64,000 nucleotides of DNA from Nitrospirota bacterium (GTDB lineage Bacteria > Nitrospirota > UBA9217). The position numbers were made by a program, and so were the translations under genes. Position 1 is the first letter of the stretch. The number at the start of each line of letters is the position of its first letter. A model generated the notes under the pieces. The model did no database searches. It saw only the letters and a list, made by a program, of their open reading frames with translations, and was not told the DNA's origin. The stretch lies in assembly GCA_963740085.1 (NCBI GenBank), contig CAVUCU010000004.1, positions 32,001 through 96,000 of the forward strand, given 5' to 3'. Shown piece after piece: positions 5,897-62,423 of this stretch.

Positions 5897-6054
5897 AGGC
5901 GTAATCATAGTATAAAACTCATGCCATTTCAAGGGAAAAGGGCACGGGGGGAAAAAGGAGGTCAGAATAGAGACAGAAAGAAGGCGGATGGATGCAACCT
6001 TTTTCGTTCATCGCCTGCTCGTCTGCCACCAGTGGTCCCGACGGGACATAGCGC

Positions 6055-6083
6055 TTGACAATGCGGAGGAGTGTGAGTATTAT
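6055..6083 (+). promoter_or_regulatory. sigma70 promoter of tRNA cluster
   Basis: TTGACA-17-TATTAT. Confidence 0.75.
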
Positions 6084-6123
6084 ATGGCCTACCAGTCAGG
6101 GTATAAAGGGAGCTTTTGTACCG

Positions 6124-6200
<77 letters not shown>

Positions 6201-6278
6201 TTGTAATTGGAAATTGAAGGTTGGAAATCGTAAATCTGAAATTTTCAATCTGTAATTTTCAATGGAGCGTAGCGACAT

Positions 6279-6355
6279 GCGCCTGTAGCTCAGATGGATA
6301 GAGCAACAGCCTTCTAAGCTGTGGGCCAGGGGTTCGATTCCCTTCAGGCGCACCA
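6279..6355 (+). tRNA. tRNA-Arg(TCT)
   Basis: ACAGC-CT TCT AA-GCTGT; acceptor GCGCCTG/CAGGCGC; CCA. Confidence 0.97.
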
Positions 6356-6449
6356 ATAAAAGAACAGACGTGCGCAAGCGCGTGAAGGAAAATTGAGAAG
6401 GTCTCCTTTCAGACGTGAATAGAATCAAATGCGGTATACGGATTGTTTG

Positions 6450-6478
6450 TTGACAAATCAAACGTGGCACTATAAAAT
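6450..6478 (+). promoter_or_regulatory. sigma70 promoter upstream of tRNA-His
   Basis: TTGACA-17-TAAAAT. Confidence 0.7.
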
Positions 6479-6523
6479 TAATTGGTTTCTCAATCCGCAA
6501 TCCGCTTTCTGAAAAAATAACAT

Positions 6524-6600
6524 GGTGGGCGTAGCTCAGTTGGTAGAGCTCCAGGTTGTGGCCCTGGTGGCCGCGGGTTCAAGCCCCGTCGCTCACCCCA
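6524..6600 (+). tRNA. tRNA-His(GTG)
   Basis: G-1 encoded; CCAGG-TT GTG GC-CCTGG; C73 then CCA. Confidence 0.97.
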
Positions 6601-6662
6601 AATTTCGATCGTAGAGACGGTCACGTCGGCCGTCTCTACAGCTTTTATAAGGTGTTTTTGAC

Positions 6663-6739
<77 letters not shown>

Positions 6740-6798
6740 GAATCACCTTGCAAGATCAGCACCCGGCAAAGAACGAGAAGGGAACTGCTTTCCTGCGG

Positions 6799-6921
6799 CC
6801 AGAGGGGTGCAGGGGAGATGCTCCGCTGCGGTTCGGGGGAGAAACCAGAGGGGGCAGGCCTCCTCTGGGGAGCCCTTCATGGGCGACGGCTGCACGGTTC
6901 GACTCCTGCCGGGCGCACCAG
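6799..6921 (+). repeat. tRNA-linked structured module copy 1 plus duplicated 3' end of tRNA-Arg(TCG)
   Basis: 6832-6889 matches 7209-7266 at 56/58 nt; 6896-6921 is identical to 6715-6740. Confidence 0.9.
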
Positions 6922-7034
6922 GATACCGCAAAGGAACAAACGACGGACGAGAGACGAGGGATGAGAGACGCATGCGCGTCCATCGTCCTAGCGCGCAAAG
7001 AGAGCGGTCGTCTATCGTCCAGCGAGTTTTTATC

Positions 7035-7111
7035 GCGCCTGTAGCTCAGCTGGATAGAGCGTTGGCCTCCGAAGCCAAAGGTCGTGGGTCCGACTCCCGC
7101 CAGGCGCACCA
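7035..7111 (+). tRNA. tRNA-Arg(CCG) with atypical T-loop (TCCGACT)
   Basis: TTGGC-CT CCG AA-GCCAA; acceptor GCGCCTG/CAGGCGC; CCA. Confidence 0.9.
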
Positions 7112-7175
7112 GTTTAATAATCAATGACAGGCAATATGCGCGGCAAAATGGGTCGGCGAAATAGAGGGTCCACGA

Positions 7176-7294
7176 CCTGAGGGTTTCAGGGGAAGCATTC
7201 CCCTGAGTTTCGGGGGAGAAACCAGAGGGGGCAGGCCCCCTTTGGGGAGCCCTTCATGGGCGACGGAGTGGGTCCGACTCCCGCCAGGCGCACC
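7176..7294 (+). repeat. tRNA-linked structured module copy 2 plus duplicated 3' end of tRNA-Arg(CCG)
   Basis: Same 58-nt core as copy 1; 7268-7294 is identical to 7084-7110. Confidence 0.9.
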
Positions 7295-7411
7295 GTCAAA
7301 AAAGAGGAGACAAAAAAGGATTAACGAGGGACGAGAGATGAGGAATGTAATTCGTTTTTCGTCTTAGTGAGCGAAGCGAACGGTCGTCAATCGTCCCATC
7401 ATTTTTTTATC

Positions 7412-7440
7412 TTGCATCAGGCGTTAAAGATAAGTATAAT
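7412..7440 (+). promoter_or_regulatory. sigma70 promoter for tRNA-Lys/Leu and tig operon
   Basis: TTGCAT-17-TATAAT. Confidence 0.65.
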
Positions 7441-7475
7441 AACCGCTCTTTGTATCTGATACTCTCATCGCGTAT

Positions 7476-7551
<76 letters not shown>

Positions 7552-7632
7552 TATTAAAACTCAGGGAGCAGTGAGCAGCAGGCAGCGGATCACGAAGGCT
7601 GCTTTACGTTCACTGCTTTCTTTGTTCCTGAA

Positions 7633-7715
7633 GCGAGAGTGGCGGAACTGGCAGACGCGCCAGACTTAGGATCTGGTGGGCGACCATGGGGGTTCAAGTC
7701 CCCCCTCTCGCACCA
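7633..7715 (+). tRNA. tRNA-Leu(TAG)
   Basis: CCAGA-CT TAG GA-TCTGG, long variable arm, acceptor GCGAGAG/CTCTCGC, CCA. Confidence 0.96.
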
Positions 7716-7828
7716 TGATAGTTCAGAGTTCGGAGTTCAAAGTTCGGAGGGAGATCGTAACGCACCTTGCGCCATGAACCTTGAAGACCATACAATCTCA
7801 ATCTACTCTTATTACAAGGTGGTATCCC

Positions 7829-11072: not shown

Positions 11073-11074
<2 letters not shown>

Positions 11075-11160
11075 TCAGAAGCAGGAGTCAGGAGCCAGTA
11101 TTCAGGAGTCAGAAGGAATATTTTTATTCTGACTCCCGGCTCCTGGCTTCTGACTCCTGA
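11073..11160. repeat. Heptamer-repeat hairpin (AGTCAGG-type) between clpX and engB
   Basis: Left arm of AGTCAGA/AGTCAGG/AGCCAGT/ATTCAGG units; right arm of TCTGACT/CCTGGCT/CCCGGCT units. Confidence 0.85.
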
Positions 11161-13460: not shown

Positions 13461-13770
13461 GGGATACGGGCGCCGATGATCGAGGGGTATCTGAAAAACT
13501 CGCCGCATTTGTCCACCGTCGTCGTTCTCCTGGACTGCAGGAGAGAACTCGATGAGCGTGACGTCCAATTGATCGAATGGCTCCGGCAGTACGATATCCC
13601 GGAGATCTATGCACTGACCAGGAACGACAAGCTTAATCGGCAGGAGACCGAGCGAGCCCGACGGAGTACCAGCGCAGGGCTGGGAATCTCTGACGAACTG
13701 GTGCTGACCTCGGCAAAGAGTGTGCTGGGGATCAAGGAACTATGGGGGGTAATAATAAAAACAATTGAAG
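13461..13770 (+). pseudogene. Duplicated 3' half of engB
   Basis: Direct repeat of about 11444-11740 (APMIEGYLKNSP...LTSAKS..GIKELW..IIK); lacks G1-G3 motifs. Confidence 0.9.
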
Positions 13771-13868
13771 GAGCCAGGAGTCAGAATTCAGGAGTCAGGA
13801 GAATAATTGTAATAGATTTTTTATCTTTGCTGCTGCTTTCCGTCTTTTATTTCCTGACTTCTGACGCC
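13769..13868. repeat. Heptamer-repeat hairpin (AGTCAGG-type)
   Basis: GCCAGGAGTCAGAATTCAGGAGTCAGGAG, nearly identical to 45450-45478; pyrimidine arm ending CCTGACTTCTGAC. Confidence 0.75.
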
Positions 13869-14369: not shown

Positions 14370-16933
14370 ATGAAGATTTATAAGCACAAATATGTTTTTT
14401 TGGTATTAGCTTTACTATTCATCCTGCCGTTGATGTTCGTTGGATGTTCGGGCAGTGATGGATCGGACGGCGCGAACGGCGCGGACGGCACGAACGGTAC
14501 GAACGGTACGAATGGCACGACAGCAAAAGCCAATGAACAGTGCCTTCTCTGTCACGGCGCCGGTGGCATAGCGGCCATCGCAGTTATGCACACGGTTTCA
14601 CCGCTTTCCTCCACCACAGCACCGCTTACCGTGGATGGTGCAAATGTGGATATCAACGAGCAGAGTGCCGCACAGCTGGCCGGGCTTACCATGGTAGGCA
14701 CGATTGATCTCGTCACAATCGCGACCGTAACTCCGGTTGTCAATTTCACGGTGAAAGATTCCGCAGGCCACGGTATAATCGGCCTCAATAACACTCAGTT
14801 TGCATATGCAATAGCCAGACTTATGCCGGCTACTGCCACGAATAAGGAGTATTGGGAATCCTACATGGTGACCTCCGCCACCTCACGCCCCGGCACCGAT
14901 TCCGAAGTTGCCAATAATGCGGGTCTGGTGGATCACCTCGACGGCACCTATACCTATACCTTCAACAAAGACCTCACTACCGTCCCCGGTATTGCCAGCT
15001 ATGCGACGACTTCGAACCTGACGCACCGCATAGTGGTCCAGATTTCAGGTACCGTTAATGGAGGCTCGCTCAATGACAGGGCGATAGACATTGTTCAGGA
15101 CTTCGTGCCGACAGGCTTGTCCGTTGATTGGGCCACAGCGAAGGCCGCAGCGACGTTGCATAACATCGTTACGGCGGATGCCTGTAATACATGCCACTAT
15201 AAGATCGGTACTACCACCCCGCACGGTGGTCGTGTTGACTCGCAATACTGCGTGGTATGCCATACGTATCAGCGTGCTAACGGTCGTTCCGCATCGGCCC
15301 CGGATTCTACCGGTGCAATGACCGGCAGCACCTACCTCGTCACCGGCCAGGTGGACGTTGGTAGTGAAACGACATCGACCGCTGGAGGCTTTGCGACCGG
15401 CGAATTCGTCTCCATGGTCCATAAGCTCCACATGGGCGAGGGCCAAAATACGCATGGGACCGTGCAGGGACTGAAACTTACCGGTTGGAACTATGGCGGC
15501 GTCCTGTTCAACGAAGTCACCTATCCCCAGGATGCTCGCAATTGCAAAAAGTGCCATAATGGTACCCAGGGCGATAACTGGATGAACACTCCCAGCCGGA
15601 AGGCTTGCGGTTCCTGCCATGACAACGTAAGCTTTGCAGCGTCTGTTCCGGTAGGGTTCGTTGCCCATTCAGGTGGGGCCTATGCCAATGATTCAGGCTG
15701 CGGTGTCTGTCATCCTGCCACCGGCGGTCTGGCGGGTATTGCCGACAAACACGTTCCTGTCATTTCGCCCGATCCGGCCGACCCGCGGCTCGGCGGCACC
15801 AACAGCCATACCAACGGGTCGTATGTTGCGGCGACAGGCGCACTTCCGACCGGAGCCGCTGGAATCACGTACGTTATCAGCAGCGTGACCAAGACGGCCA
15901 ATCATCCGTCCATCACATTCGCGCTCAAGAGTAGCTTGAGCGGCACGATGGTATTCTCTACCCCGACCTCGACGACCAGCGAACTGATGCCCAACTTCGC
16001 GGATCTCCGAGCGTATACTTTGTATGGGCAGAGCCCCAGGACGGCATCACCGCACCTTCTGATTTCAACAAGTCCGCCAGCGCCTACATCAAGGATGTCT
16101 GGAACGGTGCCGTGACTACCTCCACCATGACCGGCCCCGACGGCAGCGGCTTCTACACTCTCACCATGACCGGCACGACCATCCCCTCTACTGCGGTGAT
16201 GCTCACCGGAGGAGTCGGCTATACCTACGGCTCAGGGTCGCCCGAACTCGTCCAGACGAACCTGTCAGCCTATCCGTACACTGCGGCAACCAAAGTAGGC
16301 GGTCTTGCTGTTCCTCCGCCAAACGTATGGAAGGTTGCAGCAACCTACACCGGCCGCCGTGTTGCCGTGGACACTGCAAAGTGTAACGCGTGCCACGGTG
16401 CACTCGGGGTAGCTCCCACGTTCCATGACGGACAGCGAAACAATGCACCGACCTGCTCGTTCTGTCACAATCCGAACAGAACAAGCAGTGGCTGGTCCGC
16501 GAACGCCAGCACCTTTGTTCACGCAATCCACGGAGCAAGCAAGCGGACAGTCCCGTTCGTGTGGCATGCAACCAGCGAGACGGATAACTTCGGGAAAATT
16601 ACCTACCCGAACCTGCTGAACAACTGCTTGGCCTGCCACGTGGCTGGTTACTACGATTTCTCAGCTGCGACCTCCCTGGCTCAGGAGCCGAATCGCCTGT
16701 TCGAGACCGTCGCAACCGGTACACTCGCTTCGAGCTCAACTGGCTCGTTCGCGTATTCGCCCTATATCACGCAGGATGTGGATTACGGCAGCGCGGGCTC
16801 GGCTAACAACCTGGTGACGTCACCAACCGCCGCCGTGTGTTTCGCCTGCCACGACACCAGCGCGGCAAGGTCTCACATGGAGATAAATGGCGCGGCGATC
16901 TACCAGACGCGGAGCACTGCGATCCAGCCGTAA
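14370..16933 (+). CDS. OmcA/MtrC-family multiheme c-type cytochrome lipoprotein (frameshift near 16000, garbled 3' end)
   Basis: Lipobox MFVG-C; 10 CxxCH (6 before, 4 after the shift); LVDHLDGTYTYTF, MVHKLHMG, YPQDARNC; adding one G at GCGGATCT restores GSPSVYFVWAEPQDGIT.. and joins both ORFs. Confidence 0.88.
14451..14520 (+). repeat. 9-bp tandem repeats encoding a collagen-like G-X-Y linker
   Basis: GSDGSDGANGADGTNGTNGTNGT directly after the lipoprotein Cys. Confidence 0.8.
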
Positions 16934-23605: not shown

Positions 23606-23625
23606 AAAAACCTCCGGATAAATAC

Positions 23626-23710
23626 AGTAGTCAGGAGTCAGTAGTCAGGAGAAAAATGGATCAGCATTCGTTGCTTATTCTGGCTTCAGGCTCCTGACTA
23701 ATGTCTCCTG
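23626..23710. repeat. Heptamer-repeat hairpin between hslV and hslU
   Basis: CAGTAGTCAGGAGTCAGTAGTCAGGAG / TTCTGGCTTCAGGCTCCTGACTAATGTCTCCTG. Confidence 0.8.
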
Positions 23711-33874: not shown

Positions 33875-33962
33875 ACAGTAGTCAGGCGTCAGTAGTCAGT
33901 AGCCGGCATAAAGGATTCTGAATCAACATGCTGGATTCCGGCTCCTGGCTGCTGTCTCCTGG
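33875..33962. repeat. Heptamer-repeat hairpin
   Basis: CAGTAGTCAGGCGTCAGTAGTCAGTAGCC / CCGGCTCCTGGCTGCTGTCTCCTG. Confidence 0.75.
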
Positions 33963-41911: not shown

Positions 41912-42098
41912 AAAAATGTCCCCTGCTTTGCCCGTGATGATGTAACTTGTTCCTCGTGAACAAAAAATTACGGGAGCTGTCACTGAAAAGGGTGTGCATG
42001 CCCAGATTGGACTGGGAAGCCTAAACTTTTAGACATGGCGCCCACCTGGTTAATCCAGGAATCAAGTTTATCCACACGGCAAAAGCGGGGGATTTTTT
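41912..42098 (+). ncRNA. ssrS: 6S RNA
   Basis: About 185 nt after zapA; closing stem TCCCCTGCTTTGCCCGTG / CACGGCAAAAGCGGGGGA; internal GGGAGC and CCCACCT motifs; TATAAT upstream. Confidence 0.85.
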
Positions 42099-45438: not shown

Positions 45439-45444
45439 CAGAAA

Positions 45445-45537
45445 CAGGAGCCAGAAGTCAGAATTCAGGAGTCAGGAGTAAAGGGAGACACATTAAAATC
45501 TTTATTCTGGCTCCTGTCTACTGCCTCCTGACTTCTG
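45445..45537. repeat. Heptamer-repeat hairpin between rny and ymdB
   Basis: CAGGAGCCAGAAGTCAGAATTCAGGAGTCAGGAG / TTCTGGCTCCTGTCTACTGCCTCCTGACTTCTG. Confidence 0.85.
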
Positions 45538-45553
45538 CATCTAAGGGGGTTCA

Positions 45554-52660: not shown

Positions 52661-52728
52661 GGTGTCAGGGTTCGGGGTCCAGGGGTCAGGTAAAACCCTG
52701 AGAACCCTGACGACTGAACCCTGAACCC
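52661..52728. repeat. Heptamer-repeat hairpin between ispA and dxs
   Basis: GTGTCAG GGTTCGG GGTCCAG GGGTCAG / CCCTGAG..CCCTGAC GACTGAA CCCTGAA CCC. Confidence 0.8.
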
Positions 52729-55095: not shown

Positions 55096-55257
55096 ATGCA
55101 CAACCTCCGTGCGCAACGTTGATGACATCTGTATCTGAAAGTAGTTTAGATCAATCCGGGAGAAACATCAATAAAAAACCGATTTCGCAACGGTTGTCCG
55201 TTGACAGCCTTATCCGCTTCTGACAGGCTCATGTCACGAAGCGTATGATGCGAACTT

Positions 55258-56030
55258 ATGTTTATCGCGATGAACAAGCAGGCAAATAAAAAAACAAGCA
55301 AGATACGCATCGATCGTCTGCTCGTTGAACGGGGACTGGTGGAAAGCCGTGAACGTGCCCAGTCGCTGATCATTGCCGGTCAGGTGCTGGTGAACGAACA
55401 GAAACAGGACAAGTCGGGAGCGATGGTTCCCGAAGGTGCAGAGATCCGCATCCTCGGTGGACAGCTTCCCTACGTGAGCCGGGGTGGACTGAAGCTTGAG
55501 TCAGCATTAAAAGAATTCAAGGTGTCCGTTTCAGGTAAGACAGCCCTCGATGTGGGAGCGTCGACCGGCGGCTTTACCGACTGCCTGCTCCAGCATGGAT
55601 GCAAAAAGGTCTATGCCGTGGACGTGGGCTACGGCCAGATGGCGTGGAAGCTCAGGCAAGATCCCCGCGTGGTCGTTATCGAGCGCACCAACATTCGCAC
55701 AATGGACCCGTCGCTCATCCCGGTGCCCGTCGATATCGTGGTGATCGATGCTTCGTTCATCTCCCTCGAAAAAATCATTCCTTCCGTTCTGCGGTTTGTC
55801 GGGCCAGAATCGGAACTGATAGCGCTCATCAAGCCTCAGTTCGAAGTCGGGAAGGGGCAGGTGGGGAAGGGGGGTATCGTGCGGGATGAGGGCATGAGGA
55901 TAGCTGTTGTCGAGAAGATCGGGCTTTTTTCCACGAAACAGGTCTCAAGGTCACCGGCGTGATCCAGTCGCCGATTACCGGACAGGATGGAAATGTGGAA
56001 TATCTTCTTCACGCGTTTAAGCGTGAATAA
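55258..56030 (+). CDS. tlyA: TlyA-family rRNA methyltransferase (frameshift near 55925)
   Basis: RIDRLLVERGL, YVSRGGLKL, DVGASTGGFTD, LIKPQFE; shifted frame supplies SPITGQDGNVEYL. Confidence 0.93.
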
Positions 56031-56035
56031 GATAT

Positions 56036-56497
56036 AGTTCGGAGCAATGAGTTCGGAGTTGGGAGTTAATATACAGGGTAGGGTGAAATGCGTGACGAGC
56101 TTTTTGATTTTGAAAACCTGAAGGTTTATCAACGAGCGTTGGAATATGTTGATTTTGTCTACAGGGTTACTAAAGCCTTTCCGAAAGAGGAACTATTTTC
56201 CCTTACCGATCAGTTCGGAAGAGCTGCGACATCTATATGCCTGAACATTGCAGAAGGCAGCGGCGGGAGCAAGCCGGAGATTCAATCAATATGTAAAAAT
56301 AGCACGAAGATCGACGAGAGAATGCGTTGCGATTAGTGAGATATCTTGCAGGCAATCCTATTTTGATGAAGAAACGAAAACACAATCGAGAATGTTCTGC
56401 ACAGAAATATCGAAAATGCTGAGCGGGCTTATGAAGTCACTTTGAAGGCAATTCGCTCCGAACTAATTACTCCGAACTCCCAACTCCTGACTCCCTA
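56036..56497. mobile_element. Cassette: heptamer inverted-repeat arms enclosing a four-helix-bundle gene
   Basis: 56036-56058 AGTTCGGAGCAATGAGTTCGGAG pairs with 56456-56478 CTCCGAACTAATTACTCCGAACT (21/23); mobility is inferred only. Confidence 0.55.
56088..56445 (+). CDS. Four helix bundle protein (23S rRNA IVP / Avd-like), frameshift near 56280
   Basis: FENLKVYQRA, FPKEELFSLTDQ..RAATSI.LNIAEG, then F.QY..IARRS..EC..EISKMLSGL in next frame. Confidence 0.9.
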
Positions 56498-56501
56498 CGC
56501 A

Positions 56502-57290
56502 TCACGCCGTTAAGCGGCCCGCGAACTCTTCCCCCAGAACCACGATCGACTCGATGTCCAGATAACGCGGCGCGGTCTTGTCCAGGAGCAGCCGGCATTG
56601 TGCGGGGAAATTATCATCAGGAACGGCATCATAGAACAGCAACAGCGCCGGATAGTGAGGGAAGAAACGGAATTCAAATGCAGCGTCGTGATTCCCTTGT
56701 ATCGTTGCTTCGTTACCACCGAACCTCAAGCATGCTTCTTTCAGCGCATCGACCTTTCCTGAAAAATGCCCGGCGATCACATCCTCAACATGGCCGGCCC
56801 AGGCCTTGTCCTTTGCGTGGGATGCAGGCACCGAGCCGAAGGTTATCCACTCTCCTGAAGGGGCCGGTGGATCAGGCATGCAAAGGTGGTTGGAGATCAG
56901 TATGGATATCCAGGGCCTCGGTTCCCTGCCTCCAGCGTCAATGATCTTCTCTTTCGTGATGAGATAATTCTCGTTCAGGAACCTGATCGCAAGCTCATCG
57001 TGACCAATGAGGGTGGCGCCGAACAGGGACGCAACTTTCTTGAAATCCAACGCACGGACCCTGGGTTGCAATGCTGCCAGTGCCTGCTCATACACGGTGC
57101 CCGGCGAGTCGCGTTGTCCAATGTCCGCCTCCCGGAGAGACACGCGCCCGGCCTCGGTCATCGAGGGGCACGCATCCGGCGATGCCTGGCCGGTTGCCAG
57201 CTTCGCGGCGAAACCGAAACAGCTTGGGAGTCCGCACCGGCCGCAATTGGTCTTCGGCAGGAGCCTGTAGATCTCGACCGCGGTCTTCAT
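56502..57290 (-). CDS. Fe-S domain plus DUF3786-like protein
   Basis: LPKTNCGRCGLPSCFGFA..CP motif; EWITF..VP, FP..P....YD...D.FPA. Confidence 0.8.
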   Translation of the reverse strand: MKTAVEIYRLLPKTNCGRCGLPSCFGFAAKLATGQASPDACPSMTEAGRVSLREADIGQRDSPGTVYEQALAALQPRVRALDFKKVASLFGATLIGHDELAIRFLNENYLITKEKIIDAGGREPRPWISILISNHLCMPDPPAPSGEWITFGSVPASHAKDKAWAGHVEDVIAGHFSGKVDALKEACLRFGGNEATIQGNHDAAFEFRFFPHYPALLLFYDAVPDDNFPAQCRLLLDKTAPRYLDIESIVVLGEEFAGRLTA

Positions 57291-57893: not shown

Positions 57894-60800
57894 TTAATGT
57901 CTGTCCAGTATTTCCCGGACCTTCTTTAAAAAATCCGAAGGGCTGATGGGTTTCATGACGAAATCGAGGCCGGCTTCGAGGATCCCTTTTCTGCTCACGG
58001 ATTCAGTCGTATATCCGCTCATGAACAGAACCTTGATATCCGGGCGGATCTTTTTTATCTCCAGATACGCTTCCTTCCCGTTCTTCTTCGGCATGATGAT
58101 ATCGAATACGAGGAGATCGATCCGATTCCTGTTGGCGAAGAACTTCTGCACGGCGTCCTCACCATCAGCGGTTTCAATAACCTGGTAGCCGGAGCCTTCC
58201 AACACATATCTGGCGAGGTCACGTACGGTTTTGTCGTCCTCCGCTAAAAGCACGGTCTCCGTTCCCCGAGTGATCTCGGCATGGGCAGGGGCCGGCTTGT
58301 CGACGGAAGCCGTGGCGAGCAAGGGCAGGTATATGTCAAACGTCGTCCCTTTTTCCGGTTCGCTGCAAACAGTGATATAACCATTGTGCTGCTTTATGAT
58401 GCCGTATACCATCGAGAGACCCAGTCCGGTGCCTTTCCCGACCTCCTTGGTCGTAAAAAATGGCTCGAAGACCCTGCATCTGATGTTCTCATCCATGCCG
58501 ATCCCGGTATCCGCTACCGACAGGCATGCGTACTTCCCTGGCCTCCCGAAGGAATTGATCCTGATAAAGTCCTCTCCCAGCGTAGCCTTTTTCGTTTCTA
58601 TCCGCAATAGCCCGCCGTTCGGCATGGCATCCCGCGCATTGGCGGCAAGGTTCATCAGGACCTGTTCGATGTGTATGCTGTCGGCCAAAACCGACAGATC
58701 TTCTTCTGCGAGCATGGTCTTGAATTCGATGTCCTCGCCGATGACCCTTTGCAGCAGATACCCCGCCCGCCCGATAATGCCGTTCAGGCCGGCCGGTTTC
58801 AGGTCAAGGATCTGCTTCCGGCTGAAGGCAAGGAGGCTCCGCGTCAGATGGGCTGCCCGTTCGGAAGAGGAGATGATCTGCTCCGCAAACAGATGTTCCT
58901 GGCTGCCTTCTTCCATCTTCATCAGGAGCAGATGGCTGTATCCGATGATCGCCGTCAGAATATTGTTGAAGTCATGGGCTATCCCGCCCGCAAGCTGACC
59001 CACAGCCTCCATCTTCTGCGCCTGGCGGAGCTGGTTTTCGAGGAGTTTCAACTGGGTGATGTCGGTTATCAGGCCGTCGTAGGCTATCAGGCGTCCTTCA
59101 TCGTCATATCGCGAGACCGGCGCGTTCCTGACCCAGCGGATGGAGCCGTCCTTGTGAACGATCCTGTGTTCAAAGGAGGATGCAGGCGCTCCTGAAAGGA
59201 TCTTGGCCGTCTTTGCGATAACAGCCTGTCTGTCCGCATCGAATATCATGCGATACCAAAGGCCGGGATCTGCCTGGTGTTCCGCCGAGGTGTAGCCGGT
59301 CACGTTAGCGCAGCCCGGGCCGTGATAGATTGAGATCGCATGCCCGTTTTCAACAATGACCGTATAGATGTAATCCGTTACCGACTCGACGAGATGCTTG
59401 TAGCGTTTTTCACTGTCCGACAGGGCACTGAGCGTTTCCTTCCGGGATTCTTCAACGCCGATAGCGGACGCGACGATCCCCAGGAACTTCAGCTCATCTT
59501 CGGCAAGCAGTGGATCAATTTGATAAACCACGCAGAGTGAACCGACGAAGACGCCGCCGAAGGACACGGCCTTGCCAATATAGGTCTGTAATCCGTAGCG
59601 ACCCACGTTCGGATCTGTTTGTGCGTAGGGAGTTGCCGGAAGGTCCCGGATCACGCAAACATCCTCCGCTCCCTTTTTGATAACATCGTAGCAAATATGG
59701 CCGTCGGGCTTATCTCTGGGTTCAAAGTCCGGCGGCGTGTTCCATTGTCCCAGCGCGTACAGGGTGTTCCCTTCCAGACGATTGTAAAGCGCGCAGGTTG
59801 CATCCAGCTGTTCCCCGCATAAGGCAACGAGACGATTGATGTTCACATCCGGGTCGGGTCCGAAACTTAAGAGACACTCGTTCAACATTGACAGCCGCTT
59901 TTCCGATTGTTTGCGCGCGGTGACATCCTGAACAGCTGAGATCATCATGTCCTGCTCGGATAAGGGAATATTGAAGGCAGTGACGAGCTTCTTTTTCCCC
60001 GTCATGGTCGTTATTTCTATGTTTTCCCATCGCATCCTTGACGGATCACCGCTGGAAATATCGGACAAGATCCTGTCTCTTATCTCTGTTCTGTAAGCAG
60101 GGTCCGGATATACATGATTGAAAAATTCTTCCACATTCACAAGAACATTTTTGGGCCAGCCGTATATTTCTTCGAAGGCGGTGTTCATGTAGATTGTTTT
60201 GCCGTCTGTGATGCTGTGCACTGCAAGCCCGATCGGAAGATTGATCATGACCGCTTCAATGAACGCATTGCGCTTGGTAAGGTCAATTTCCATCTTCTTT
60301 CTCAGAGATATGTCCCTGACCAGCTCGATCCCTGCCACGATCTTGCCGGTTTCGTCCCTGAGAGGAGATGCGGTTATTTGAAGATAGCGCGTTCCCTGAT
60401 CGCTCAAATGGGTCCGTTCGGCTGAATGAATCCTTCCGTCCTGAAAGGTTTCTTCCAGGATGCAAGATGGGCACACGGAGTCGCGGTGCTGATATGCCTG
60501 GTAACAATATTCTCCAATATGGTTGCCATATATGTCCTTGTGGACCTGGTTCTCGTAGATTATCTTGAAGGACGTGTCACAGATGGTGAGTCCTTCGCCG
60601 ATCGCCGCGAGAATAGCCTGTGATCTGTTCCTTTCGTTGATCAGTGCGATCTCGGTATTCTTCTTCGCCGTAATATCCTGGCCGATGCTTGTCGTTGCGA
60701 TGACGTTCCCCTCAGAACCGTGGAGAACGGTGTTGCTCCAGGCGATGGTTCGGCGTTCCCCTGATCTCGTGATGATCTCGTTCTCAAACTGCCTGGGGAA

Positions 60801-62423
60801 TTCCGCAGTCAGGACCGTATTGAGAAAGACGTCCTTGACACGATCCCGAACCCCCTCGGGAAGAAAGTATGCGAACCAGTCCTGACCCAGTACCTCATCT
60901 CTGCGCCAGCCGGTCAGCTCAAGCAGAAAGTCATTGCAGAAAATGATGGTCCCGTTCAAATCCAGGTTAACGGCCAGCAGCTGGACGCCCTGAAGCATCT
61001 CGTGATAGCGTTGCTCCGAATCACGCAAAATCCTTGCCGCCAGCTTGCGTTCGGTGATGTCCCGGATGATGCTCTGGAAGAAACTCTTCCCCTTGACCTC
61101 GATGACGCGGGAACTGACCTCAACGGGAAATGTCGAGCCGTCTTTTCGCCTGTGCTCGGTCTCAAAAATAAAACCGTCATGGTCGCGTATCTGCTGCATC
61201 TGCGCGCTAACTTCGTCGACCGATTCGACGGACCGGAGGTCCCTGATGGAAAGGCGCAGCAGTTCATTGCGCGAATAGCCGTATACCCGAAGCGCACGAT
61301 CATTGGCCTGCAAGATCTTTCCTCCGGGTTCGATGAGCATGATAATATCGTTCGCATACCTGCTCAGATAGTCATATTGGCGTGTCAGGAGATCATGCTC
61401 GATCTCAGCCTGGTATTGCAAACGATCGTTCTCTGCTTTTTTTTGCCTCCACCAGAAGCTTATGATCAGTCCCATAGCAGAGATAAGCATGATCGTCACA
61501 AAGGACATGAGCCGGCCCTGTGCGCGGACGGGTGCGTAAATTTCCTCGATATCCATCTTGGAGACCAGAAACCAGGGAGTATCGGGAATTGCCCGCGTCG
61601 ATGCAAGGACCGGTACCGAACGGTAATCGATGCCTTCGAACGTGCCCTGGAGTCCTTGCAATGCCAAGGCCGCGGGCAAGCGCTCGTTGCCCAGCGGGAT
61701 GCGCAGGGTGAGGGCGGTATTTTTTTTGTGGCGGAGCTCGTTCAGAAAGAGGACATTGTCTCCCTCCTTGCGGATGAGCAGCGTCTCAGCGCTCCTGCTT
61801 GTCCCGGGCCATGTCCTGAGCAGCGGGTAGAGGAATTCCTCCGGATTGAGCCGGATGAAAATAGCGCCGAGCGGAATGGCCTTATTTCCTTCATGCATGA
61901 TGAGCGGTGAGGCAATATCGAGGTGAGGAAGCGTATAGCCCGAGCCCTTATGAAAATCGGACATCATCACCTTTTGAGATCGCAGTGCTTCTTGTACCAA
62001 CGTTGCAGCACGAATGCCGATCGTTGTATCCTTGGGCGAGGTGGCCAGCAGTACTGCTCCCCGGGGGTCAACAAGGAGGATGTCTTTGTAGTTAGGGTTC
62101 TGCTCGAATGATTTCATCCACTGAACGATCTCGCGCCGGGCGAAGGATGATCCAGGGTGTTGCAGCAGCCGCTGGACCGCTGATACGATGATGGCATTAT
62201 GGGCAATCGAGTTTGCATCATAGATGCGTTCATTGCGCCAGTTGGCGATCTGATTGACCTTCAGATCCGCGATGGCCGAGAGCTCGTCCTGGATGTTCTT
62301 TTTGATCTGCTGTTTTTGAAAATCGTAGTAGACGTACCCGGCAATCCCAATGCAGAGCGCCAGGATGAGGAAAAGGATGAAAAGTCGAGACTGTGTATGT
62401 CCGAAGTCAGGACGCAGTGACAT
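57894..62423 (-). CDS. Hybrid sensor histidine kinase (TM-Cache-TM, 5 PAS, GAF, HisKA, HATPase, REC)
   Basis: AGGIAHDFNN H-box, NL..NARDAM, DTG.G, FEPFFTTK..GKGTGLGL, receiver DIIMP. Confidence 0.95.
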   Translation of the reverse strand: MSLRPDFGHTQSRLFILFLILALCIGIAGYVYYDFQKQQIKKNIQDELSAIADLKVNQIANWRNERIYDANSIAHNAIIVSAVQRLLQHPGSSFARREIVQWMKSFEQNPNYKDILLVDPRGAVLLATSPKDTTIGIRAATLVQEALRSQKVMMSDFHKGSGYTLPHLDIASPLIMHEGNKAIPLGAIFIRLNPEEFLYPLLRTWPGTSRSAETLLIRKEGDNVLFLNELRHKKNTALTLRIPLGNERLPAALALQGLQGTFEGIDYRSVPVLASTRAIPDTPWFLVSKMDIEEIYAPVRAQGRLMSFVTIMLISAMGLIISFWWRQKKAENDRLQYQAEIEHDLLTRQYDYLSRYANDIIMLIEPGGKILQANDRALRVYGYSRNELLRLSIRDLRSVESVDEVSAQMQQIRDHDGFIFETEHRRKDGSTFPVEVSSRVIEVKGKSFFQSIIRDITERKLAARILRDSEQRYHEMLQGVQLLAVNLDLNGTIIFCNDFLLELTGWRRDEVLGQDWFAYFLPEGVRDRVKDVFLNTVLTAEFPRQFENEIITRSGERRTIAWSNTVLHGSEGNVIATTSIGQDITAKKNTEIALINERNRSQAILAAIGEGLTICDTSFKIIYENQVHKDIYGNHIGEYCYQAYQHRDSVCPSCILEETFQDGRIHSAERTHLSDQGTRYLQITASPLRDETGKIVAGIELVRDISLRKKMEIDLTKRNAFIEAVMINLPIGLAVHSITDGKTIYMNTAFEEIYGWPKNVLVNVEEFFNHVYPDPAYRTEIRDRILSDISSGDPSRMRWENIEITTMTGKKKLVTAFNIPLSEQDMMISAVQDVTARKQSEKRLSMLNECLLSFGPDPDVNINRLVALCGEQLDATCALYNRLEGNTLYALGQWNTPPDFEPRDKPDGHICYDVIKKGAEDVCVIRDLPATPYAQTDPNVGRYGLQTYIGKAVSFGGVFVGSLCVVYQIDPLLAEDELKFLGIVASAIGVEESRKETLSALSDSEKRYKHLVESVTDYIYTVIVENGHAISIYHGPGCANVTGYTSAEHQADPGLWYRMIFDADRQAVIAKTAKILSGAPASSFEHRIVHKDGSIRWVRNAPVSRYDDEGRLIAYDGLITDITQLKLLENQLRQAQKMEAVGQLAGGIAHDFNNILTAIIGYSHLLLMKMEEGSQEHLFAEQIISSSERAAHLTRSLLAFSRKQILDLKPAGLNGIIGRAGYLLQRVIGEDIEFKTMLAEEDLSVLADSIHIEQVLMNLAANARDAMPNGGLLRIETKKATLGEDFIRINSFGRPGKYACLSVADTGIGMDENIRCRVFEPFFTTKEVGKGTGLGLSMVYGIIKQHNGYITVCSEPEKGTTFDIYLPLLATASVDKPAPAHAEITRGTETVLLAEDDKTVRDLARYVLEGSGYQVIETADGEDAVQKFFANRNRIDLLVFDIIMPKKNGKEAYLEIKKIRPDIKVLFMSGYTTESVSRKGILEAGLDFVMKPISPSDFLKKVREILDRH

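Follow-up and report, generated by a model that had tools for sequence, protein, structure and literature searches.

The window analysed here, a stretch of 64,000 nucleotides from a Nitrospirota bacterium (contig CAVUCU010000004.1, positions 32,001 to 96,000), contains at 56036–56492 a gene of the four-helix-bundle family PF05635/TIGR02436 placed between two inverted arrays of heptamers, as a first reading made from the sequence alone (the sequence-only reading) had described. The same layout surrounds members of this family in many phyla, and the repeat unit follows the clade of the protein. Our interpretation, to which we assign a probability of about 0.55, is that of a compact repeat element bearing an open reading frame (ORF): its own protein would recognize the arrays as cognate sites, and the arrays could pair into a stem of the RNase III type. 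For the copies outside ribosomal RNA (rRNA), this interpretation presumes binding, cleavage, and mobility. The element of the window is composed of the following parts.

56036–56070, forward strand: left arm, five heptamers (AGTTCGG AGCAATG AGTTCGG AGTTGGG AGTTAAT)
56088–56445, forward strand: PF05635/TIGR02436 four-helix-bundle gene, of 118 codons in the read-through translation and disrupted by an extra base at about 56280
56458–56492, forward strand: right arm, five inverted heptamers (CCGAACT AATTACT CCGAACT CCCAACT CCTGACT)

The heptamers read exactly as the sequence-only reading had listed them, and its 23-bp inverted repeat with 21 matches is found at 56036–56058 and 56456–56478 (91% complementary, 21/23, spacing 397 nt). 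An inverted-repeat search also returns a second register, of 31 nt and 77% complementarity. The RNA duplex between the arms has an energy of −34.6 kcal/mol, compared with −18.6 ± 3.4 for 300 shuffles of the right arm, the best of which reaches −33.1. Pairing of the arms is thus above chance, and both the minimum free energy and the centroid folds of 56030–56505 pair the left arm with the right one. For the word AGTTCRG, the window has 25 occurrences where 15.8 ± 3.9 are expected (1 of 100 shuffles gets to 25). The proper signal is their clustering, as five of them are at the element and three at 7720–7747.

The read-through translation of the gene matches PF05635 with 104.7 bits (cut-off 33.8), residues 9–113 falling on profile positions 1–106, and TIGR02436 with 96.8 bits (cut-off 24). 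By sequence, its nearest relatives of solved structure are 2gsc_A (E 4e-14) and 2rld_A, with five chains deposited for each. The sequence-only reading had correctly recognized a member of the family between the arms, while overlooking a +1 frameshift in the assembly. The ORF is split into a part in frame 1 (56088–56336) and a remainder in another frame, up to 56445, and the cause is the one extra base at about 56280, which is missing from all five orthologous copies (5/5). The window copy is therefore not an intact ORF of about 115–130 codons. The extra base is either a mutation or an assembly error, and the two are indistinguishable here.

By shared words, 701 relatives of the window protein are found, of which the best has 95% identity, and a scan of genomes gave 67 loci in Nitrospirota, Thermodesulfobacteriota, Planctomycetota (Scalindua), Omnitrophota, Bacteroidota, Actinomycetota, Chloroflexota, and others. 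The window and these loci contain 71 copies of the gene, nearly every one of which has AGTTCGG-like units upstream and their reverse complement downstream. Two copies were dropped because of short or N-containing flanks, leaving 69, and ORFs of at least 150 amino acids from the same loci served as controls. At least three in-phase RGTNNNN units are found upstream in sense in 43/69 copies, downstream in antisense in 43/69, and on both sides in 31/69, compared with 9, 14, and 0 of 321 control ORFs. The opposite orientation is found in 0/69 copies, and shuffled flanks give 9/1380. An ungapped arm-to-arm score of at least 12 is reached by 48.6% of 70 copies and by 0.9% of 326 controls. The mean self-match at lag 7 is 15.7 and 17.4 of 28 on the two sides, compared with about 11 at lags 5, 6, 8, and 9; arrays arise only at lag 7, plus lag 8 in three copies, and are mostly 4–5 units long. 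With a strict threshold (12/14 matches at lag 7), arrays on either side are found in 41/69 copies versus 45/321 controls, an undercount because variant units interrupt the arrays. Shared inverted 7-mers are present in 53/69 copies versus 45/321 controls, a leaky control because control genes also border hairpins. The duplex between the arms has a median z of −3.0 relative to shuffles over 70 elements, 43 of which are below −2. Hence, periodicity and complementarity are properties of the gene family and not of this locus, and the possibility that other four-helix genes lack such arms, named by the sequence-only reading as a counter-case, clearly does not hold.

To go beyond the clade of the query, 18 of 41 plasmid records matching the protein were taken, mostly cyanobacterial and some mutually orthologous. 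Among these 18 copies, whose flanks were judged by eye, 15 have inverted arrays. The gene on a Pseudanabaena plasmid (L071) has about 16 copies of CTAAAAG upstream and copies of CCAAAAG downstream. In all inverted cases, including the hairpins of the window, the loci, and the plasmids, the 5′ arm is the C-poor, G-rich one, with the exception of L060 7911–8151.

The unit type follows the clade of the protein and not the host genome. In a tree built from 65 intact proteins, 51 rows from many phyla form a clade with 100% support, which includes 40 rows with AGTTCGG-like units, compared with 0 of the 14 rows outside it. Within this clade, a subclade of five rows (99% support) has CGTTCGG, and four long-branched rows (L043, L044, L052, and L058) have other words. 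The units outside the clade are GTGAATA, GGGTGTA, GGTGACA, GGGAAAA, GAGGACG, AGTCAGG, and the 8-mers AATTGAGG, ATAGTGCG, and GGAGATAA; GGGAGTA is also among the units found elsewhere in the family. Sister rows have a unit in common (L068/L069 and L066/L067). AGTTCGG accompanies proteins of 50–95% identity in Nitrospirota, Thermodesulfobacteriota, Planctomycetota, Omnitrophota, and Bacteroidota, and family members that are neighbors in one locus each have their own unit (two members 340 nt apart in L010, and likewise in L031). The statistics of this association are not strong, because it consists mostly of one deep split plus a few switches. The number of label changes on the protein tree is uninformative (22 observed versus 21–22 in shuffles), since most labels other than AGTTCGG are singletons and the classifier merged CGTTCGG with AGTTCGG. 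A comparison of the CGTTCGG and AGTTCGG clades provides a lead on candidate specificity residues, at positions 36, 67, 100, 103, 106, and 112 of the window protein, from one clade only. The second member of L010 (5586–5945), a relative of 31% identity, has GTGAATA arms and lies directly after the stop of a kinase gene and ahead of a response-regulator gene; there are two orthogonal cassettes within 1.1 kb in this locus.

The protein is under purifying selection, as the ratio of nonsynonymous to synonymous substitution rates (dN/dS) is 0.04–0.19 in the 10 pairs, out of 15 orthologous or paralogous ones, whose dS is unsaturated. The units remain unchanged despite a dS of 0.7–1.2 between paralogues, and in the main clade their profile is A85 G T T75–83 C48–58 G63–65 G66–73, where positions 2–3 are set by the pattern used in the search. 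On one contig, three paralogues resemble each other over arms and ORF only (about 430 bp, 76–85% identity), whereas the similarity between orthologues of different genomes extends through the flanks too. This indicates that the insertions are old and that the cassette is a discrete unit. The number of units, on the other hand, changes fast. Two contigs of one metagenome-assembled genome (L001 and L059) are 94% identical over 6.3 kb and have one and five units in the right arm, with left arms that also differ, and the arrays of the six orthologous tlyA junctions differ widely.

These elements resemble the ORF-bearing intervening sequences (IVSs) of 23S rRNA in Coxiella, Leptospira, and others, which encode the same protein family within a loop closed by the pairing of their complementary ends. 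The Coxiella IVS has a 28-bp terminal stem whose cleavage by RNase III, at the first repeat, was mapped by rapid amplification of cDNA ends, and three tandem heptamers, in numbers varying among strains, precede its S23p ORF (PMC4990558). The window element shares with it the tandem heptamers before the ORF and their variable copy number. In view of these published data, the statement of the sequence-only reading that it knew of no mechanistic description of such a pairing was too strong. An older idea, cited in the same paper, regards the IVS as a mobile element whose ORF serves mobility (PMC4990558). There are also differences. The window copy lies between two protein genes and not in an rRNA helix, its arms are imperfect and register-free, and purifying selection acts on its relatives; the Coxiella ORF, by contrast, is reported to be decaying and probably untranslated (PMC4990558). 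A link between the two situations is given by L070, from an Azospirillum plasmid, which lies within a bacterial large-subunit rRNA gene (508 bits, model positions 877–1667) and whose heptamer-built arms form a long near-perfect stem (fold z −10.06). Since this copy is inside a 23S rRNA gene, the window kind can be regarded as the ORF-bearing rRNA IVS element living outside rRNA.

The proposed element would thus consist of a gene of about 118 codons between opposed arrays, usually of 4–5 units of 7 nt (8 nt in some clades), and would be of the same kind as the ORF-containing 23S rRNA IVS, here lodged between the stops of tlyA and of a convergent gene and inherited at this junction in a group of related Nitrospirota genomes. 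Having no promoter of its own, it would be transcribed by read-through from the upstream gene. The arrays of the transcript could then pair, in several possible registers, into an imperfect stem of 25–35 bp enclosing the ORF, which RNase III could cut, as published for the rRNA IVSs and as presumed for the window kind. Under this proposal, the cutting would make the insert tolerable in operons, in rRNA, and even in a coding region. The protein, whose solved relatives are pentameric, would recognize its own unit, with roughly one subunit per unit, and such recognition would account for a unit sequence that is conserved, an order and register that are free, and units that change with the protein clade. 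Slippage would quickly lengthen or shorten the arrays, new insertions would be rare, and loss of the ORF would give empty hairpins. The latter may descend from filled ones or act as sites in trans.

Several results weigh against this interpretation. The window copy and 3/5 of its orthologues are disrupted, and covariation of unit and protein is also expected if arms and gene are simply co-inherited. The whole-element fold of the window copy is unremarkable (z −1.25). The best arm alignments outside rRNA have 168 mismatches in 1350 columns, 106 of them of the transversion type, and the mismatches compatible with G·U pairs number 30 in sense and 32 in antisense, showing no RNA-level bias. Three of the 18 plasmid copies (L071, L075, and L077) have arrays of the same orientation on both sides. 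In the DNA examined, empty hairpins, with many unit families, are more numerous than the genes, and a profile built from 74 family members, i.e., all intact copies in hand, finds no second family gene in the 64 kb. No empty allele is seen at the tlyA junction, where the 6/6 orthologous junctions are filled, these having been retrieved through the gene, nor was an empty allele of any filled site found, the genome scan having been made with the gene; no near-identical copies are seen either, and the argument for mobility is one of distribution. Finally, the order of the units in the two arms of 37 elements is mirrored in 13, co-linear in 12, and tied in 12. With this count, a co-linear order, suspected from the window, L004, and L005, is rejected. 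The arms keep the unit type and not its order, and selection is apparently on the word and its orientation rather than on a fixed stem. The view of the sequence-only reading that the cassette loops out as one stem is energetically plausible, but a fixed register is not conserved, as the unit order is free and the G·U bias absent.

The main rival explanation regards the heptamer hairpins as elements of the host, e.g., binding sites of nucleoid proteins, structures at transcript ends, or G-rich structures, in the loops of which an unrelated selfish four-helix ORF preferentially lands without reading the repeats. The distribution of filled and empty forms was surveyed over 764 kb (the window and the 67 loci). 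There are 274 period-7 arrays and 60 inverted pairs in this DNA, the latter being distributed by loop size as follows.

Loop of 0–200 nt: 25 pairs, 1 holding the gene
Loop of 200–300 nt: 1 pair, 0 holding the gene
Loop of 300–700 nt: 31 pairs, 29 holding the gene
Loop of 1000–1500 nt: 3 pairs, 2 holding the gene

The contrast drawn by the sequence-only reading between filled and empty hairpins is therefore supported in the form of two size classes; the empty hairpins of the window itself use other units. Under the host-element view, one would expect empty hairpins to be common and to have many unit families, as is the case for the 25 short-loop pairs. The same view is favored by published arrays. 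In Geobacter metallireducens, eight pairs of about five heptamers, on opposite strands and between consecutive genes, were named class 3 global regulator sites and considered as possible IHF/HU sites, with no such gene nearby in the accessible account (PMC2700814); the Geobacter unit is the reverse complement of the AGTCAGG/ATTCAGA type of the window (PMC2700814). Two Xanthomonas genomes have 70 and 75 convergent GGGAATC pairs, for which no function was found, in a work that also treats Nostoc (PMC4692102), and TAACTGA repeats are described in Beggiatoaceae (PMC4679880). The empty hairpins of the window are like these paired arrays in having 4–5 units per arm on opposite strands between consecutive genes, and also in lying close to 3′ ends and being rare between divergent genes. 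The published readings, as accessible, invoke IHF/HU sites, G-quadruplexes, or translational control, with no link to PF05635. The elements studied here differ from these partnerless arrays in that they bracket a PF05635 gene, with a unit that changes with its clade. Cyanobacterial STRR heptamers are a further case of paired intergenic heptanucleotide arrays that are not known to have a partner gene.

Two further results agree with genes landing in existing hairpins. One junction, upstream of dxs, has three unit families in related genomes (GTCAGGG, CAAATCA, and CAAGGGT in the window, L001, L002, L018, and L061), and in L024 (about 5940–6420) CGTTCGG arrays with their gene are nested in outer ATTGCGG/ATTTCGG arrays, an arrangement suggestive of an element that went into the loop of a different hairpin. 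On the other side, the unit tracks the protein across phyla and not the host genome, elements side by side in one locus retain different units, and the similarity between paralogues takes in the arms. The unit thus tracks the protein across phyla and within single loci, which weakens this explanation, and we consider it unlikely, though the strongest of the rivals. A hairpin of L011 (3583–3787) is a deletion intermediate, in which both arms are retained and the gene is reduced to its first 32 codons, with 89% identity to an intact copy 2.3 kb away; ORF remnants are found in 1/5 of the AGTTCGG-type hairpins with short loops. No other cargo gene was found in the six long unfilled inverted pairs inspected. 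The pair of L027 belongs to two successive elements, being formed by the right arm of the first and the left arm of the second across a response-regulator gene; that of L004 looks like a spurious pairing within coding sequence; that of L011 spans several ordinary genes; and those of L020, L024, and L060 have non-coding loops of 154–227 nt.

A somewhat less probable explanation is that of a DNA transposon of the cut-and-paste or copy-and-paste kind, whose arrays are DNA ends assembled by the protein for a recombination or replication enzyme of the host, the RNA stem being incidental. Many copies have defined terminal inverted repeats, starting with ATAGTTCGGAG and finishing with CTCCGAACTAT, an end from which the right end of the window copy has drifted. 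Several copies occupy unrelated sites of one contig, insertions are found within a histidine-kinase domain and within rRNA, and the arm mismatches lack an RNA-type bias; all of this would suit such a transposon. Against it, the sequence-only reading was right in calling the cassette transposase-less, as there is neither a transposase nor a fused domain, and nothing transposase-like or recombinase-like adjoins it in the window. A catalytic domain is absent, and longer or fused forms of the protein are limited to one match, of 210 amino acids. The paralogues are just 76–85% alike, so that no recent jumps are visible, and the near-perfect arms in rRNA would be expected from a role of RNA pairing at that site. 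The evidence on target duplications is ambiguous, because the AT bordering the elements is self-complementary. A 15-nt direct repeat (13/15) lies on either side of the window cassette, at 56009–56023 and 56502–56516, and may represent a duplicated target, a split terminator, or a chance match. A similar likeness of left and right flanks is seen in the orthologues of the window junction, and a repeat of this type is absent at the kinase insertion. No match to the family protein was found in phage records, and a PADLOC search returned no family.

The insertion sites themselves are mostly gene junctions, as the sequence-only reading had proposed. Based on crude ORF calls, 32 cassettes lie between co-directional genes and share their sense, 14 between convergent genes (the class of the window copy), and 4 between divergent genes, while 14 are antisense to both neighbors. 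On plasmids, cassettes are found between nrd genes and also inside cas operons, which may explain why the family was listed as CRISPR-associated in a large clustering study (PMC10910872). In the cyanobacterial plasmids L071, L073, and L076, the order is cas6-gene-cas4 twice and cas10-gene-cmr3 once. A histidine kinase is interrupted by the cassette in L009, L010, and L015, between positions 33 and 35 of the HATPase_c profile. Stop and start codons overlap at either boundary, and the C-terminal piece begins with the translated right arm. The annotation of such genes is affected, as the cassette splits the kinase into two translationally coupled ORFs. In L010 (418–5555), the kinase is a PAS histidine kinase of 1494 amino acids, its C-terminal piece has 97, and the arrangement is conserved in three genomes. 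An empty allele of the second element of L010 was sought in L015, where the downstream context differs and no comparison is possible.

Small intergenic inverted repeats at gene junctions, with empty forms far outnumbering coding ones, are also typical of the Correia elements of Neisseria, which are miniature inverted-repeat elements cut by RNase III when transcribed, and of the comparable REP/RAYT systems. The elements described here differ from both in having tandem 7-nt arrays instead of unique terminal repeats, and as sole ORF a helical bundle of 118 amino acids with no transposase fold.

The family has been described as resembling Avd (PMC10053308), the accessory protein of diversity-generating retroelements, and it is conceivable that the window gene is such an accessory gene or its remnant. 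The two proteins are distantly related, with weak similarities to bAvd (17 bits), DivGenRetAVD (17.3 bits), and the PHROG entry "Avd protein of DGR" (E 1e-5). Avd itself is a pentamer with a four-helix-bundle fold and partners with nucleic acid and reverse transcriptase. The profile scores are all far under the cut-offs of 40 and 80 bits (NF033474, 17.3 versus 80), no reverse transcriptase or pair of template and variable repeats is found among the ORFs of 53.5–59 kb, the neighbors are tlyA and a DUF3786 gene, and phage records are unmatched. An Avd identity is therefore refuted for the window locus, unless the protein serves a reverse transcriptase acting in trans, and this explanation is very improbable. 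Still less credible is a functionless by-product of chance and slippage, by which short tandem repeats accumulate in AT-poor intergenic DNA: tandem heptamers are indeed the most abundant intergenic repeats of prokaryotes, with no clear functional clue (PMC6344855), but this is contradicted by the controls (0/321, and 9/1380 in shuffles), by the fixed orientation (31/69 versus 0/69 for the opposite layout), by the clade specificity of the units, and by their conservation past saturated synonymous divergence.

The interpretation as an element whose arrays are read by its own protein can be extended, more tentatively, to the family as a whole. PF05635 proteins might be the trans-acting partners of the period-7 intergenic repeats of prokaryotes, each clade with its own word of 7–8 nt and about one subunit of the pentamer per unit, the cassette of gene plus arms being the autonomous form and the ubiquitous empty hairpins its non-autonomous offspring or binding sites. 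The long-noted excess of heptamer repeats would then have an explanation, and nature would offer a series of small proteins whose 7-nt recognition code can be read; should each subunit read one unit, modular proteins that bind nucleic acids would become available from a new source, namely this family. The numbers are considerable, as a search with one intact relative gives 13,733 clusters (50% identity) at E values up to 1e-3 and 1,287 at values up to 1e-10. The layout thus connects a very large family of orphan proteins with the commonest unexplained short repeats of bacterial genomes. The papers on Geobacter (PMC2700814), Xanthomonas and Nostoc (PMC4692102), and Beggiatoaceae (PMC4679880), in their accessible text, describe such arrays with no partner protein, and the association of arrays with PF05635 as a property of the family was not found in the literature searched, which lacked most subscription journals. 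The clade-specific coupling merges two open questions into one, namely whether the protein binds its own unit.

The junction that hosts the window cassette has the following features.

55258–56030, forward strand: tlyA, rRNA 2′-O-methyltransferase, upstream host gene (TIGR00478, 240.8 bits; FtsJ and S4 domains)
56000–56035, forward strand: hairpin over the tlyA stop codon, abutting the left arm (inverted repeat, 15 nt, 93%)
56502–57290, reverse strand: convergent host gene and right boundary, with profile matches to FeS and DUF3786, its stop facing the cassette

The gene lies between the tlyA stop at 56028–56030 and the stop of the DUF3786/FeS gene, and so fills this gap, in accordance with the sequence-only reading. 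The stem of the hairpin over the tlyA stop is preserved in five orthologous junctions (L001, L002, L018, L059, and L061) through paired changes (TTCACGC/GCGTGAA, TGTATGCC/GGCATACA, TTTATGC/GCATAAA, and TTCATG/CATGAA). A promoter-like site is found ahead of tlyA, at 55220–55249. Between tlyA and the cassette there is no promoter-like site, and no intrinsic terminator was detected. As assembled, the tlyA ORF stops at 55962, and the C-terminus typical of the family goes on in another frame up to the TAA at 56028–56030. The frameshift lies at a run of six T (55925–55930), where seven would restore the frame to the usual C-terminus. Counting the extra base in the cassette gene, a stretch of about 360 nt has two single-base indels, possibly a sign of errors in the assembly.

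The sequence-only reading had also proposed a family of hairpins throughout the window. This family is real, as there are six heptamer hairpins besides the filled element, all of them intergenic, as well as a solo array without an inverted partner.

11073–11160, no strand assigned: empty hairpin of AGTCAGG type, with a stop codon on one side and the next start codon on the other
13769–13865, no strand assigned: empty hairpin of AGTCAGG type
23625–23699, no strand assigned: empty hairpin of AGTCAGG/AGTAGTC type
33876–33962, no strand assigned: empty hairpin of AGTCAGG/AGTAGTC type
45440–45538, no strand assigned: empty hairpin of AGTCAGG type
52664–52728, no strand assigned: empty hairpin of GTCAGGG type, just upstream of dxs
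7720–7749, forward strand: solo array of four AGTTCRR heptamers (AGTTCAG AGTTCGG AGTTCAA AGTTCGG), 4 nt past a tRNA-Leu gene

The empty hairpins are not footprints of the filled element, as had been suggested, because their units are of the AGTCAGG/GTCAGGG type and not AGTTCGG, and because the 64 kb hold no second family member. A scan with Rfam found no family on any hairpin and no rRNA in the window. The cargo-free AGTTCRG units reported at about 7719–7748 do form an array, which is a one-sided direct array and not a hairpin, the closest exact inverted unit being at 16242. This array follows the last tRNA of a cluster of seven tRNA genes (6124–7715). On the reverse strand, at 57894–62423, a PAS histidine kinase of 1509 amino acids resembles in its N-terminal region the split kinase of L010 and is uninterrupted; its C-terminal architecture differs, ruling it out as an empty allele of the L010 insertion. 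The window also contains a 6S RNA gene, at 41917–42095 (104.9 bits).

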